From the NCBI GenBank assembly GCA_048886185.1, contig JBHLKY010000009.1, positions 180,001-212,000 on the forward strand: DNA of 32,000 bases. The letters run 5' to 3'. The notes under the pieces are model-generated. The model was not told where the DNA came from and did not search any database. It saw only the letters and a program-made list of their open reading frames with translations. Shown piece by piece: positions 21,213-26,589 of the stretch. A program made the position numbers and the translations under genes. How positions within the stretch are numbered: position 1 is the stretch's first letter; every line of letters begins with the position of its first letter. The DNA is from Candidatus Hermodarchaeota archaeon. Its GTDB lineage: Archaea > Asgardarchaeota > Heimdallarchaeia > Hodarchaeales > Hodarchaeaceae.

Positions 21213-22712
21213 TTGGTCTCAATATTAAGAACCAGATTTTCTCGAATAGCTAATGTTGTAATATTCTTTGCTTTAGCTTTGTTTCAAATCATAGTTGTAT
21301 CTTGGATAAGCATTAGTCAAGAGGCGAAACCTGAATATCTCGATATCCAGTGGATTACTCAGTGGCACATCTTAGGATTTTATGTATCAATCAATCCAAT
21401 GGCAGACCCACGTTTCACTGGATTATTAGTAGTATTGACCGCTGGATTGCAAATACTCTTATTAGGATTTTTAGTAAATGTAGTATTCTCAAACAAGAAT
21501 ATGGTTCAAATTTTCCCTGAACCGCTATATGGCCCTTCTTATGCCCCTGAAGAGGCACCAATTGTTGATAAAACTGTTGCATTAGTAACAAGGGTCTCGC
21601 AAAAAGCAAAAATTAAAATAAAAAAGATTTTTGTTTATCGTAAAGCAGTACCTAATGCATTTTCACTCGATCTTATACCATTACCTATTTTTCGAAGACC
21701 ATATCTAGTACTCAATACAAATGTTCTGGAGATACTTAATGACAATGAAATTGAAGCCGTTATTGCTCATGAACTTGCTCATGTGAAAAATAGCGATAGT
21801 CTTATCAGGTTGATTTTATCGGTTCCTCGCTTATACCTTAACCTCGTTTATTTATTTATCTACCTTCAAATCGTCACGGGTATATTAGATGCACTTTTTG
21901 ATACCCTAAATCTCGGTATTGCGTTTGAACGGATAATTTTTCTTGGACTTGTGTATTTCATATTAGCCATTTTCACTAAGATAACAGTTCATTTTCTCTC
22001 TTCTGCTAATCATCAGGCTGAATATTTAGCTGATTATTTTGCAGCCAAATTGATTGGACCAGATATACTAATTAACTCCTTGATTCATTTAGGTCAACGT
22101 AGTGAAACAATGCAAGTCCTATCAAGAGAGATTGAGTGGCTTTCCAGTCTCTCAGAGGAGCAAAAGACTTCTAGTAATTTTTTAAGGAGAATCTACCAGC
22201 GGTTTCCAAAAACCCAGTTAAATGAGGATGTAGCTCGTGAAATCGCCCCTAGAATTTTTCTGGAGGAGAAATTTGAAGAATTAATAAGGGATTATGGGAT
22301 TGAGCTGGATTCACCAATCAGATCACAGCTCATTAAGAGTGCTGTTCCTGGATTACTAGAAAAGAGAGCACAATATTTCAGTACATTAGAGAATGATGAA
22401 GCAAAAAAGGCAGATTTCACTCCGAGTGTTCTTAAGGCAAAGACCATTGACTGGCGTCATTTTGATTATAATGCAAGTCAGACACTAGAAGAGGAGGAAA
22501 TTGCGAGCTTTATCCAAACAATTCTTGCTCAACCTGATAAAATGGTATTTGAGCATGAGCTTTTCCAAACTGCTGAGAGGGACAGTGACCATCCAAATTT
22601 TCGGGAAAGAATCCTAACAATTTATCGCACATTCCATTTAAGTCAATATAAGGAAATTCTGGCTGAAGTAACCAAGAAGCAAGAAAACTCTTCCGAGATG
22701 GTTAATTCTTAG
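21213..22712 (+). CDS. Membrane M48 (HtpX/Ste24-like) zinc metalloprotease with an EF-hand-like insertion
   Basis: PNAF, IAHELAH (HEXXH, H186-H190), AEYLAD (E270), DHPNFRERI (H460), several TM helices; loop DYNASQTLEEEE. Confidence 0.88.
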   Translation: MVSILRTRFSRIANVVIFFALALFQIIVVSWISISQEAKPEYLDIQWITQWHILGFYVSINPMADPRFTGLLVVLTAGLQILLLGFLVNVVFSNKNMVQIFPEPLYGPSYAPEEAPIVDKTVALVTRVSQKAKIKIKKIFVYRKAVPNAFSLDLIPLPIFRRPYLVLNTNVLEILNDNEIEAVIAHELAHVKNSDSLIRLILSVPRLYLNLVYLFIYLQIVTGILDALFDTLNLGIAFERIIFLGLVYFILAIFTKITVHFLSSANHQAEYLADYFAAKLIGPDILINSLIHLGQRSETMQVLSREIEWLSSLSEEQKTSSNFLRRIYQRFPKTQLNEDVAREIAPRIFLEEKFEELIRDYGIELDSPIRSQLIKSAVPGLLEKRAQYFSTLENDEAKKADFTPSVLKAKTIDWRHFDYNASQTLEEEEIASFIQTILAQPDKMVFEHELFQTAERDSDHPNFRERILTIYRTFHLSQYKEILAEVTKKQENSSEMVNS

Positions 22713-23590
22713 TCATAGAGGACTTTTTCTAACATTTCGGGGATCGAACGTTCATCAATTGCCATTAAATAGAGTTTAACATTTGCCATTTTTCTTAATT
22801 TACCTAATATAGGAGCGGTGAGCTGGAGTGTCTGTCGTTTAGGAGTGAGGATGATGCGAACATCTTCCATGCGTTTGAGTATAGGCAAAAAATCGATGCC
22901 ACTTGTGGCTAGGAGGTCGGAAATGATGACAAGTGTCTTTTTATAACCAATTTGATGAGAGAACTCTTTCTGTGCTGCTTGTAAAGCAGAAGAGATGTTT
23001 GTTTTTCCTCCAGAGCGAATATTAACTAATTCTCTAATTATATTTAGTGTGGTTATTTTAGAATCTCTAAATCTCTTGATGAACTCTGGATGACTATCAA
23101 ATCCAATTAATGCGATGTCTTTGATGTTGAGCGATAGACTGAATAAAATTGCAGAGAGAATAATGAGTTTCAGATAAATCAACACTGAATGACTTTTATC
23201 GATCAATAACATAATAGATTGTAGTTTTCCTTCTCTTTTATTACAAACAACATGTTGATAAGTAAAGTTAGAGTCCCCTGATAGAAGAAAATTCAAAATT
23301 GTACTCTCTACATCCCACGAGTTTCCTGGAGAATAAGGAATTTTCTTTGGATATTTTGAGCGATCGATTGCATTATATATTCTTTCTGCATGTCTATAAA
23401 GCCTTGGAACGAGTTTTTGGAGTAATAATTGCTTTTCTTCATAAGAAAGATGTTCCTTGATTTGAAAAAATAAGGAATTCGATTCTAATATAAATTCAGC
23501 ATGCGTAAAATCCATTTGCAAGGATTCAGTAACCGCTTTAGGATATAATCCTGCTAAGATCTCAATTGCACGTAAATTCTGAGTATCCAT
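22709..23590 (-). CDS. vWA-domain protein (CoxE-like MoxR partner); frame open without a start codon up to the frameshift site at about 23737
   Basis: Complete MIDAS: LIDKSHS (DxSxS), GGKTN (T), IISD (D); CoxE-like PYSPG..WDVESTI segment. Confidence 0.88.
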   Translation of the reverse strand: MDTQNLRAIEILAGLYPKAVTESLQMDFTHAEFILESNSLFFQIKEHLSYEEKQLLLQKLVPRLYRHAERIYNAIDRSKYPKKIPYSPGNSWDVESTILNFLLSGDSNFTYQHVVCNKREGKLQSIMLLIDKSHSVLIYLKLIILSAILFSLSLNIKDIALIGFDSHPEFIKRFRDSKITTLNIIRELVNIRSGGKTNISSALQAAQKEFSHQIGYKKTLVIISDLLATSGIDFLPILKRMEDVRIILTPKRQTLQLTAPILGKLRKMANVKLYLMAIDERSIPEMLEKVLYD

Positions 23591-23710
23591 TGCTTGTTGT
23601 GCGAATGTTAAGGCAGTTTCTGTGTTTAATTTATCTTGTAACTGAAACTCATAGATTTGTTCAAGTAAATAGCTGGAATAATTTACATCATGACTTACTT
23701 GCAGCTGAAA

Positions 23711-23743
23711 GGCGGGATCAATGTCCCGCCCTAAGATTTTTTT
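23711..23743 (-). other. Candidate -1 programmed ribosomal frameshift signal (slippery heptamer + stem-loop)
   Basis: Minus strand TCA AAA AAA TCT TAG GGCGGGA CATTGA TCCCGCC: A_AAA_AAA in XXXYYYZ phase (23743-23737), 6-nt spacer, perfect 7-bp stem with 6 G-C pairs; the -1 frame is the vWA frame. Confidence 0.75.
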
Positions 23744-24585
23744 GAAAAAGAAGGGAAAAAGATTGGCTCCGCAATTTCTAGCAGACTATCCTCAAGAGAA
23801 TTATTAATATCTGGATGTAACTTCACTTTACCCGAGTAAACAGCATATATAGCAGGGAATACAACATCACGAACAAGTGGCCGATTTGACAAGAGTTGAG
23901 TCAGTTGGATTGCAGCCCGTACACTTGCACCTGTTTCAAAATTAGCTGATGACCGTGTCTGATCTGTAAAGTGAACTATTTTTGTTATTAAATCCTCATC
24001 AGAGCAGTTTGTACGTAGTTGGACAATTTTTCTAGCTTCGTAACCAGATTTATGCTTAAGAGGGATTAAGATGCATCTGTCAAAAAAAGCTTCAGGTAAC
24101 GGATTTGTACCTATATATTCGATAGGATTTCGTGCAAATAGAGAATAAAATTCTGCTTTTGCTTTAATATGTCCGAGCTGGGGAACTTCTATTTGTCTCT
24201 CATCTAGTGCAGATAAAACACCATTTATGGATTCACTTGGGGCACGATTGACCTCATTGAAGAAAAATAATCCTCCCTGTTTCATGGCATTTACTAGGGG
24301 GCCAGGGATATAGCTTTCTTCCCCAAAACCTGTTTTCATGACCAAAGGAGGATCGAACCATCCTCTTAAATGAGTAATTGTAAGGTTCTCATCACCATCC
24401 ACCCTAAAAAGGGGTCTATTGAGAGCTTTTGCAATCGTTTTGGCCAATTCAGTTTTCCCTGTCCCAGATTCCCCCTCAATTATTACAGCAATTTGACTAT
24501 CAATTGCTGCTAAGATTAACTGAATCTCTTTATCAAGTCCAACCAAATTTTTTTGGCAAGTTCTTAGAAGATCTTCGAGATCCAT
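23731..24585 (-). CDS. MoxR-family AAA+ ATPase (CoxD/CbbQ-like)
   Basis: Walker A GESGTGKT, FRVDG, GPLVNAM, variant Walker B FFFNEVNR, NPIEYIGTNPLPEAFFDRC (sensor 1 and Arg finger), GASVRAAI. Confidence 0.92.
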   Translation of the reverse strand: MDLEDLLRTCQKNLVGLDKEIQLILAAIDSQIAVIIEGESGTGKTELAKTIAKALNRPLFRVDGDENLTITHLRGWFDPPLVMKTGFGEESYIPGPLVNAMKQGGLFFFNEVNRAPSESINGVLSALDERQIEVPQLGHIKAKAEFYSLFARNPIEYIGTNPLPEAFFDRCILIPLKHKSGYEARKIVQLRTNCSDEDLITKIVHFTDQTRSSANFETGASVRAAIQLTQLLSNRPLVRDVVFPAIYAVYSGKVKLHPDINNSLEDSLLEIAEPIFFPSFSKKS

Positions 24586-24615: not shown

Positions 24616-26589
24616 CTAGTCAAGCTCGAGAAGTGATTTTTTCAGTGTGACTTGTCCTGAATCTTCATTGAACTCGATCCACCCCTCAGTTTCGAGCTCC
24701 TTCAACAAGCGTGTAGCAAATACATTTTGAATTGCGACAGTTTTGGCAAGTTCTTTTAGAGTGGCTTGTTGGATATCCTGAAGTACGAAGAGTATTGCAT
24801 ATTTTGGATTCTTAGCAAGATTGATCCTTAATGTTTCAACGGCCGTCATCAGATTCGCTGACTTTTCTTCCAACTTCTTCTTTGTATTATTTAAAGTTGA
24901 AATTTCATCATCTTTCTCTTTTAACTCAGTTTCGTTACCTTTTATTCTTTTATCAAGTCTTTCCTTCTCTGCATTAGAATCGTTAAGTTGGGTTCTAAGA
25001 TCCTTTATTATATCTTCAAACTTATCGTGTTCACGTAGATTCTCAGCCTGTTTAGATCGGAAATCATCAACTTTATGGGTAATTTCTTCATGCTTTTGTC
25101 TCAAAACATCTAGGTCTTTTTGTTTCTCTTCTAATTCACGATCTTTTGTACCTACTTGAGTCTTAAGATCTAATAGTGATGTTTGCTGCTTTTCGTACTC
25201 AATTTTAAGGTTTGCAAAGGATTCTCTTAATTCATCTCTATCAGATTCTATTGCATAGATACGTTCTTTTTTACTTTTCAAATCTGTTTCTAAGTCTTTT
25301 ATCTGAGCTTCTAAAGATCGATTAGTATTTAGAAGGCTTTCAGTTAAATCTTGAGAATTTTCTAATTTTTCTTGCGCTTCATTTATTTCAGTTAGTTTTT
25401 CATTGAATTCTTGTTTTTGGGTTGTAATTTCTAGAGTCAAAACCTCAAAATCTTGTTTTATCTGTTTATATTCTTGTTTAAGAATAATTAACTGCTCTGA
25501 GAGTTGTTTAGATTCTTTCTCGCTCCTTTCTACTCTAAGAAGTAGTTCTCTATTCTCATCTTCTCTTTTTTCTAGAGCTCGTTGTGTTTCATCTAATTTA
25601 TTACGAACAACAATCGCTTCTTGGCTTGTTTCCCCTGAATCTAATAATAAATCCTCATTTTCTTGTTCTAATCTTGATATCTGTTCTCTTAACTGATTTA
25701 AGTTGATTTCCATATTCTGAATTTGTTTTGTCAATTGGTTTATTTTTTCTACCTGCGTCTGTATTTTACCCTCAAAAGCTGTCTTTTGCTCTTCCAACTT
25801 GAATCTATGATTATCTTTTAATGTATCAATTTCATTTTGAAGGCCATCAATAGTTTCTTTTAGTTTGACATTTTGTTCTGAGTGAGAACTTAGAATTTTT
25901 ACCTCTGATTTCAAGTTTTCGATTTCAATATTCTTCTCTGATGTTAATGTCTCAATTTCGTTATCCTTATTCCCTAATACTTCTTGAAGCTGCTCTATTT
26001 CAAGGCGTGCTGACATTAATGCATTACCAACGGTTTCAAAATCAGTTTCCATCTTTTCACGCTCTTGAATAGCTTTTTTTGATTCACGTTGAGCTTCATC
26101 AACAGCTTCTTGGAGGCGATTTATGTCCTCAATTTGTGATGTAACTTTCCCTGAGTCAATTCCAGACTGGTTCTGCAATTCTGCAATTTGTGTTTCTTTC
26201 TCTTCCAGTAATATATGCAGATCATCAATCTTCATTTCTAAGGCTTCTATTTCGGAGATTTTTTCTTTCAACAATTGATTTTCTTTCTGGAGTTGTTCAA
26301 ACTCAGTATTTGTAATTAATGTAACCTCTGAATCAAGTAGCTCGAGGTTATCTACCCCTTTGAGCCCTATTTTCGAGAATTCCGTATGAGCTGCTTTGTT
26401 AATAATCTGCATCTTTTGTTTAAGTTTTTCAACTAAATCTTCTACATCAGCTATTGAATAATATGATTTGGGAAATTGTTGTAGTGTTTTAATCGCAGAT
26501 TTTGCTTCTGATGATATTTCTTGACTCAGGCGACGCTCCTGTTGTGCAATATTTTGAATAAAGACAAGTTTGGGGTTCTTGCTTGACAA
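24616..26589 (-). CDS. Long coiled-coil protein with C-terminal winged-helix domain
   Basis: About 500 aa of continuous E/K/Q/L heptad-like sequence, then PKYAILFVLQDIQQATLKELAKTV...ATRLLKELETEGWIEFNEDSGQVTL (wHTH pattern). Confidence 0.8.
   Translation of the reverse strand: MSSKNPKLVFIQNIAQQERRLSQEISSEAKSAIKTLQQFPKSYYSIADVEDLVEKLKQKMQIINKAAHTEFSKIGLKGVDNLELLDSEVTLITNTEFEQLQKENQLLKEKISEIEALEMKIDDLHILLEEKETQIAELQNQSGIDSGKVTSQIEDINRLQEAVDEAQRESKKAIQEREKMETDFETVGNALMSARLEIEQLQEVLGNKDNEIETLTSEKNIEIENLKSEVKILSSHSEQNVKLKETIDGLQNEIDTLKDNHRFKLEEQKTAFEGKIQTQVEKINQLTKQIQNMEINLNQLREQISRLEQENEDLLLDSGETSQEAIVVRNKLDETQRALEKREDENRELLLRVERSEKESKQLSEQLIILKQEYKQIKQDFEVLTLEITTQKQEFNEKLTEINEAQEKLENSQDLTESLLNTNRSLEAQIKDLETDLKSKKERIYAIESDRDELRESFANLKIEYEKQQTSLLDLKTQVGTKDRELEEKQKDLDVLRQKHEEITHKVDDFRSKQAENLREHDKFEDIIKDLRTQLNDSNAEKERLDKRIKGNETELKEKDDEISTLNNTKKKLEEKSANLMTAVETLRINLAKNPKYAILFVLQDIQQATLKELAKTVAIQNVFATRLLKELETEGWIEFNEDSGQVTLKKSLLELD

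Follow-up and report, generated by a model that had tools for sequence, protein, structure and literature searches.

A candidate -1 frameshift site joining a MoxR-type ATPase and a vWA protein in Hodarchaeales

We analysed a stretch of 32,000 nucleotides (hereafter the window) from Candidatus Hermodarchaeota archaeon (Hodarchaeales, Hodarchaeaceae in GTDB; assembly GCA_048886185.1, contig JBHLKY010000009.1, positions 180,001 to 212,000), in which the gene of a MoxR-type AAA+ ATPase is followed on the minus strand by an open reading frame (ORF) for a vWA protein. The first frame, here moxR (23731-24585, minus strand), was recognised as an ORF and by Pfam, and encodes 284 residues with an AAA_5 ATPase domain. 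The second, as an ORF finder calls it, starts at an ATG at 23590 and extends to 22709 (minus strand), encoding 293 residues with the rest of a helical domain and the VWA domain. The final codons of moxR on the minus strand are TCA AAA AAA TCT TAG. After TC they contain the heptamer A_AAA_AAA (23743-23737, minus strand), which in the 0 frame of moxR has the X_XXY_YYZ phase and which is the proposed site of a -1 shift. The 0-frame stop TAG (23733-23731, minus strand) lies three nucleotides past the heptamer, within the spacer TCTTAG that separates it from a putative stimulatory hairpin, GGCGGGA-CATTGA-TCCCGCC (23730-23711, minus strand). The core of this hairpin has six G-C pairs and one A-U pair. 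According to RNAfold, G-U and A-U pairs extend the stem to nine base pairs (23732-23709), with -15.8 kcal/mol for the 48 nucleotides past the heptamer and z = -2.1 relative to shuffled sequences. The spacer measures six nucleotides to the core stem, within the range of about 5-9 nucleotides looked for in a downstream structure, and four to the extended stem.

The -1 frame of moxR is the frame of the vWA ORF and no stop separates them. At the end of moxR this frame is open from 52 nucleotides before TAG. From the heptamer on, 49 codons (23737-23591, minus strand) include no ATG, GTG or TTG until the ATG at 23590 is reached. The start-free segment would encode a disordered linker of about 20 residues and then the first two helices of the vWA protein. 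Given the base composition, 49 stop-free codons are expected by chance with P ~0.027 and 49 start-free codons with P ~0.095. A shift on the heptamer would produce a protein of 283 + 342 = 625 residues, and the unshifted product has 284. The sequence-only reading that drew attention to this locus had described the end of moxR, the phase of the heptamer, the hairpin, the open -1 linker of 49 codons and the two products of 284 and 625 residues, and we found all these statements to be correct.

The first ORF matches the Pfam families AAA_5 and AAA_3 (AAA_5 at 80.6 bits for a cut-off of 22) and has both Walker A (GESGTGKT) and Walker B (FFFNE) motifs, as a MoxR-type AAA+ protein should. The Walker B stretch (24250-24270), FFFNEVNRA, has N-E for the usual D-E, and it does so in all orthologs of the genus, in the second family and in the fusion protein P0001, both presented below. 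When the ATPase is compared domain by domain with the sequences of solved structures, its best matches are MoxR 2r44 (37.6 bits), CbbQ 5c3c and NorQ 9qh4. We also considered a special kinship with midasin, which ranks first in the PDB with an E-value of 1e-32. This value is the sum of six to eight AAA-domain matches of at most 29 bits each, and we dropped the link because per domain it is no better than the match to the bacterial MoxR 2r44. The second ORF matches Pfam VWA_2 (43.5-48.2 bits for a cut-off of 27). Its MIDAS motif, DKSHS (23200-23186), provides the D-x-S-x-S of a VWA/MIDAS adaptor, and with the T and D that complete it (D182, S184, S186, T248 and D276) is invariant in 19 orthologs. 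The vWA profile had zero matches among PDB sequences and the NCBIfam models had zero matches on the vWA part, and membership in ChlD/BchD was rejected (TIGR02031 at 29.2 bits for a cut-off of 499.55). In fold comparisons, the predicted structure of the -1-frame product best resembles the NorD VWA domains in NorQD complexes (9qhd, 9qhe, 9qh6) and then the MIDAS domains of MDN1/Rea1.

Conservation in the genus is informative on both the shift site and the missing start codon. A six-frame search of 21 genomes of the same genus found the locus in 20, and with the genome of the window and a split-contig copy (L031) taken in, the comparison covers 21 loci. Relative to moxR, the vWA ORF is at -1 in all 21, and so it is in the 26 loci of the second family. 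Of the orthologous junctions scored in the genus and the second family, 44 of 44 contain an in-phase A-run heptamer, as do L023, L024 and L031, be it A_AAA_AAA, A_AAA_AAC or A_AAA_AAT, with runs from A6 to A13 (6, 7, 9, 10, 11 and 13) and the 0-frame stop at a distance of 0-15 nucleotides. In every ortholog examined (21 loci in the genus and 26 in the second family), the -1 frame is already open shortly before the heptamer. In three loci (L007, L016 and L017) it opens only 10 nucleotides before the moxR stop, and any frame change must therefore fall in the A-run. The residues just past the run vary among orthologs (KKIL, KKTL, KKLE and others). As for start codons, the 50 codons past the heptamer are free of ATG, GTG and TTG in 9 of 20 loci of the genus, and in the others the starts are scattered; in L007 and L011 a scan of roughly 85 codons beyond the junction found none. 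The methionine of the ATG at 23590 is replaced by L, I, V or F in other species of the genus. Hence, the slippery site proposed from the window alone is conserved in orthologs, their linkers are open in the -1 frame, and in the genus no start codon is conserved.

The linker bears the marks of coding sequence. About 14 variable residues follow the hairpin, with pairwise diversities of 0.68/0.61/0.67 at codon positions 1/2/3. In the next 26 residues, from LLExIYEYQLQxKL onward and before the ATG at 23590, these values are 0.40/0.20/0.53, the same profile as in the vWA body (0.36/0.21/0.58). The reading frame downstream of the heptamer is thus at -1, open, devoid of a start of its own and under coding constraint. 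We modelled the -1-frame product with AlphaFold2 from an alignment of 19 sequences and obtained a mean predicted local distance difference test (pLDDT) score of 78. In this model residues 1-20 are disordered, and helices at 20-35 and 41-53, with pLDDT around 90, would be part of an N-terminal helical domain that reaches residue 125. Translation from the ATG at 23590 would, on this model, remove the two N-terminal helices. Judged by their sequences, both halves, moxR and vWA, are under purifying selection.

Loci of the genus with short A-runs keep the hairpin. All 15 scored A6 or A7 loci of the genus have GCGGGA...TCCCGC at 4-7 nucleotides past the heptamer, with energies of -10 to -19 kcal/mol. 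In L031 (A7) the stem is the same, and RNAfold adds two weak flanking pairs that bring the spacer down to one nucleotide. In the 17 aligned loci the stem GCGGGA/TCCCGC is always kept, with a mismatch at its base in L011. Its codons CGG, GAC and CCC account for 7%, 20% and 15% of their synonymous families genome-wide, a joint expectation of 0.002, which suggests a constraint on the RNA besides that on the encoded peptide R-D..P-A. Loci with long runs are different. The hairpin is missing in L008 (G009:C120; A10), where exactly the 5' arm is deleted, and in L015 (G001:C2) and L018 (G016:C78), which have A11 and A10; in L011 (G005:C365; A13) it is mismatched and weakened, and in L007 (A9) it is intact. 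In a tree of concatenated proteins L008 falls inside a clade with A7 and hairpin and L015 and L018 form a separate lineage. Therefore, the hairpin was lost at least twice independently, each time with an expanded A-run. In reporter experiments in E. coli slippage climbs with the length of the A-run, from 10% for A7 to 40% for A9 and 63% for A11 (PMC3711429), and the loss of the hairpin alongside runs of A10-A13 fits this published increase.

To a class-wide search, orthologs appeared in 27 of the 31 genomes of a second Heimdallarchaeia family (f3), at 28-35% identity, and at E <= 1e-20 there were none in four further Heimdallarchaeia families. In the 26 junctions that were read in this family, the heptamer is A_AAA_AAA without exception and always in phase, mostly as CGA AAA AAA GAx, and the -1 frame opens 19-28 nucleotides before the moxR stop. 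A hairpin is found 13 nucleotides past the heptamer, a longer spacer than is typical. Its sequence differs from that of the genus, CCTTACA...TGTAGGG in most genomes and CTCTATCA...TGATAGAG in others, so that between the two groups the stem sequence differs and the hairpin is kept. Within the second family, changes on both sides occur at all seven pairs, with 88% of the cells paired; none of 500 shuffles reached the observed values, and controls in which the stem was slid were only 39-58% paired. The sequence-only reading had asked for a covarying hairpin. This was found in the second family, at seven of seven pairs, whereas in the genus of the window the stem is invariant and covariation is not demonstrable.

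Natural in-frame fusions, which had been named as another check, do exist; they share the architecture of the predicted fusion and have lengths of 618, 624 and 643 residues. The protein P0001 (618 residues, Hodarchaeales) matches MoxR residues 15-275 at 40% identity and residues 38-340 of the -1-frame product at 29%. The unaligned stretch between its two halves has 44 residues, compared with about 46 in the predicted shift product. The other in-frame AAA_5-vWA ORFs have 624 residues (L029, G001:C32) and 643 residues (L097, G041:C74, from a third family). P0001 and the fusion copy of G001 represent a third paralog type in the genus of the window. With the query used, no in-frame AAA_5-vWA fusion turned up in the window's own genome.

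The genome of the window also contains a second, paralogous MoxR-vWA pair (G000:C3:87795-87800; L021:1375-1381), whose first ORF ends in CGT TTT TTA TAG. Here the in-phase heptamer is T_TTT_TTA, with a stem ATCCCGAG...CTCGGGAT six nucleotides later. Counted from the heptamer, 358 codons of the -1 frame are free of stops, and the first start codon comes 125 nucleotides downstream of the stop of the first ORF. The paralogous pair was found in 17 genomes of the genus (L052-L068), where T_TTT_TTA is invariant. Conservation of the -1 peptide begins at the T-run itself, whereas a conserved ATG first appears 191 nucleotides downstream. Across these genomes pairing in the stem amounts to 92%, and at one pair A-U is replaced by G-C. 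In other families the paralog site reads T_TTT_TTC and has a conserved ATG about 60 nucleotides downstream. As a control, we listed the 2382 in-phase A6/T6 heptamers that lie within long frames of the genome. At ten places a 0-frame stop lies at most 60 nucleotides from the heptamer and the -1 frame stays open over 150 codons or more. A GC hairpin together with the lack of a start codon is seen at just two of the ten, which are the MoxR-vWA pairs. The other places have an ATG or TTG start shortly downstream and look like ordinary gene neighbours (one was checked by ORF and Pfam). One candidate with A7 and a small hairpin, G000:C3:73798-73804 (L099), was rejected, as it is the overlap of a NOG1-like GTPase gene with a TruA pseudouridine synthase gene that has its TTG start at the stop.

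In four sediment metagenome runs of one study, Logan contigs cover the identical stretch at depths of 11-58, with A7 and zero indels; two of the four are a strain variant with A>G at 23788. A7 rather than A8, which the sequence-only reading wished to see verified, is thus present in contigs of four runs, at the level of consensus. The contigs are consensus sequences, possibly including the source sample. They argue against A8, but minority A8 reads would stay hidden in them. The comparative evidence is a stronger argument against an assembly error than these contigs.

From the anatomy and conservation of the signal, the coding constraint seen in the linker and the natural fusions, all of them observed, we infer that the reading frame is shifted in expression. 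It is very probable that recoding of some kind takes place at the moxR-vWA junction. That moxR and the vWA ORF form one recoded gene, in which a -1 shift gives an ATPase and an ATPase-vWA fusion, is in our judgement the best reading of the sequences and a probable one. Ribosomal -1 frameshifting would probably be the main route at the A7 site, and it is favoured because the anatomy is that of the textbook: an in-phase heptamer, a short spacer, a stable stem and a 0-frame stop directly after. Under this scenario, most ribosomes would read moxR to its TAG and release the ATPase of 284 residues. A fraction of them, paused by the GC hairpin six nucleotides downstream, would slip back by one base on A_AAA_AAA and read on in the -1 frame, giving the MoxR-linker-vWA protein of 625 residues. 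By analogy with ChlI/ChlD and NorQ/NorD, this fusion might enter the MoxR hexamer through its AAA+ module, which would attach one or a few MIDAS adaptor domains to the ring. As the vWA part lacks its own start codon in the genus, it is probably through the shift, mainly or exclusively, that it is made there. The efficiency of the shift, whatever its value, might then set the ratio of ATPase to adaptor.

One may go further and combine these elements: recoding would be obligatory for the Hodarchaeota vWA, which would never exist as a free protein; efficiency would fix the number of MIDAS adaptors per hexamer; the lineage would toggle between two routes to the same shift, a ribosomal slip on A6/A7 stimulated by the hairpin and slippage on A10-A13 without one; and both paralogous modules, with the A-run and with the T-run, would have retained the device from before the two families split. 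Taken as a whole, this is speculative and we think it more likely to fail in some part than to hold.

Several observations weigh against the frameshift. The organism is known from metagenomes only, and no RNA run was listed among those that contain the stretch. Runs of A7 are common in a genome of 35% G+C and the heptamer alone is weak evidence. The genomes compared are related, and counts of loci are counts of non-independent events. In the genus the invariance of the stem precludes showing covariation. The stem also encodes R-D..P-A, and its conservation could in part be due to the protein. In most genomes of the second family there is an ATG 81-84 nucleotides past the heptamer (start codons are absent there from L077, L078, L089 and L098, and a TTG is the only one in L075). 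This semi-conserved ATG makes an independent initiation of vWA possible in that family.

The same 625-residue protein would result from slippage of the RNA polymerase, which by adding one A would produce an A8 mRNA that encodes the fusion directly. Long A-runs are the classic signal of transcriptional realignment (PMC3711429), and relatives with such runs have lost or weakened the hairpin. Polymerase slippage likely contributes to, or substitutes for, the ribosomal shift in these hairpin-less relatives with A10-A13. At the site of the window we find it rather unlikely. Runs of A6 and A7 are, as is generally known, short for efficient polymerase slippage. This process needs no hairpin, yet the 15 of 15 scored loci with such runs keep one at the spacing typical of frameshifting. 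Nor does it need a phase, yet the heptamer is always phased as X_XXY_YYZ, including when it is A_AAA_AAC or A_AAA_AAT.

Alternatively, moxR and vWA might be two separate proteins in a compact overlap, with vWA translated by reinitiation after the moxR stop or from a non-canonical codon. The -1 relation is indeed the commonest among overlapping prokaryotic genes, and a few loci have starts at the junction, such as a TTG at -1 (L012), an ATG at -4 (L031) and, in the paralogous pair, ATGA (L066). The ATG of the second family also favours a separate initiation. But the genus has no start codon in common, the scanned codons of L007 and L011 contain none, and both coding constraint and confidently predicted helices lie upstream of every candidate vWA start. 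Moreover, the stable hairpin sits exactly where a reinitiating ribosome would need to start, and the residues past the A-run vary, so no fixed non-canonical start codon is kept. We therefore give this explanation little credence. Finally, homopolymers are error-prone and in-frame fusions exist in nature, but a sequencing artefact in a single fused ORF or a recent frameshift pseudogene is barely credible, as 47 independently assembled genomes would need the same -1 shift at runs of 6, 7, 9, 10, 11 and 13, the four runs agree on A7, and selection maintains both halves.

A gene for a coiled-coil/winged-helix protein of 657 residues (24616-26589, minus strand) lies 30 nucleotides upstream of moxR on the same strand, and an M48 protease gene (21213-22712, plus strand) converges on the vWA stop. 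According to tblastn, the C-terminus of the coiled-coil protein is encoded directly upstream of moxR in 19 of the 19 loci of the genus that reach that far. The M48 protease gene has its convergent position in 19 loci of the genus, and the flanking synteny is fixed in the genus. The coiled-coil/winged-helix protein may be an operon mate, a client or a partner of the MoxR pair. The sequence-only reading had suggested a CoxD/CoxE-like chaperone. The basis of this label is weak: VWA_CoxE matches the second ORF at the border of significance (27.0 bits for a cut-off of 26.4), the best structural match is NorD, and no cox genes are among the identified flanking genes, which are those of the coiled-coil protein and the M48 protease, the rest of the window and of the genome not having been searched for cox.

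The closest known case is that of the frameshifted chlD genes (fs-chlD) of Mg and Co chelatases (Antonov et al. 2013, PMC3711429; PMC9227772). They likewise make a short AAA+ protein and a long AAA+-linker-vWA protein by a -1 shift at an A-rich heptamer or poly-A. They occur in bacteria and archaea, have in-frame fusions in relatives, and shift more efficiently as the A-run lengthens (PMC3711429). The moxR-vWA gene works like fs-chlD but is no member of it. Its ATPase is of the AAA_5 type, similar to NorQ, CbbQ and GvpN, and thus from a different AAA+ family. We saw no link to a chelatase pathway, the identified flanking genes being the two described above. Also unlike fs-chlD, the moxR-vWA site has a conserved GC hairpin and the paralogous pair uses a T-run.

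Among archaea, fucA1 of Saccharolobus solfataricus joins two ORFs by a -1 shift on A_AAA_AAT with a putative stem-loop (PMC1616953; PMC8211752), and this was the only archaeal -1 frameshift reported up to 2021 (review PMC8211752). The fucA1 heptamer A_AAA_AAT is shared with the ortholog L012. Yet, fucA1 encodes a glycosidase of which only the full-length product is functional, whereas the 0-frame product of moxR is a complete ATPase. The dnaX gene of E. coli (tau/gamma) offers another parallel, as it is an AAA+ gene with two products for a ring complex, an A-rich heptamer and a downstream hairpin. There, however, the shift makes the shorter product, and in moxR-vWA the longer. In Thermus, dnaX relies instead on polymerase slippage on A9 (PMC3711429), and the two versions of dnaX parallel the pattern of hairpins and long A-runs in moxR-vWA. 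At the level of proteins, NorQ-NorD and CbbQ-CbbO combine a MoxR AAA+ hexamer with a VWA/MIDAS adaptor. The NorD fold, the NorQ/CbbQ sequence and the intact MIDAS all match here. These pairs consist, however, of two separately translated proteins, and NorD and CbbO are larger than the vWA part described here. We saw no nor or cbb genes next to the moxR-vWA pair, and its Walker B has N-E, not D-E. Full-text searches of the literature brought up no published account of a frameshift for MoxR/AAA_5-vWA genes or for any Asgard archaeon. With fs-chlD, however, the principle that one locus yields an AAA+ and an AAA+-vWA subunit by a -1 shift at an A-rich site is already established.

If true, a -1 site conserved in about 47 Asgard genomes adds a testable case to archaeal recoding, which is sparsely documented. 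Its hosts, the Hodarchaeales, are proposed to be close kin of eukaryotes, and the paralog adds a second site that is differently built. There are also consequences for annotation. Gene callers start vWA at internal codons that are not conserved, or call it as a separate gene, and thereby lose the two N-terminal helices and the fusion. The inverse relation between hairpin and A-run length provides a natural experiment on how recoding signals change. If the frameshift is real, a covalently tethered, sub-stoichiometric MIDAS adaptor would answer how the ratio of ring to adaptor is set, in parallel to ChlI/ChlD.

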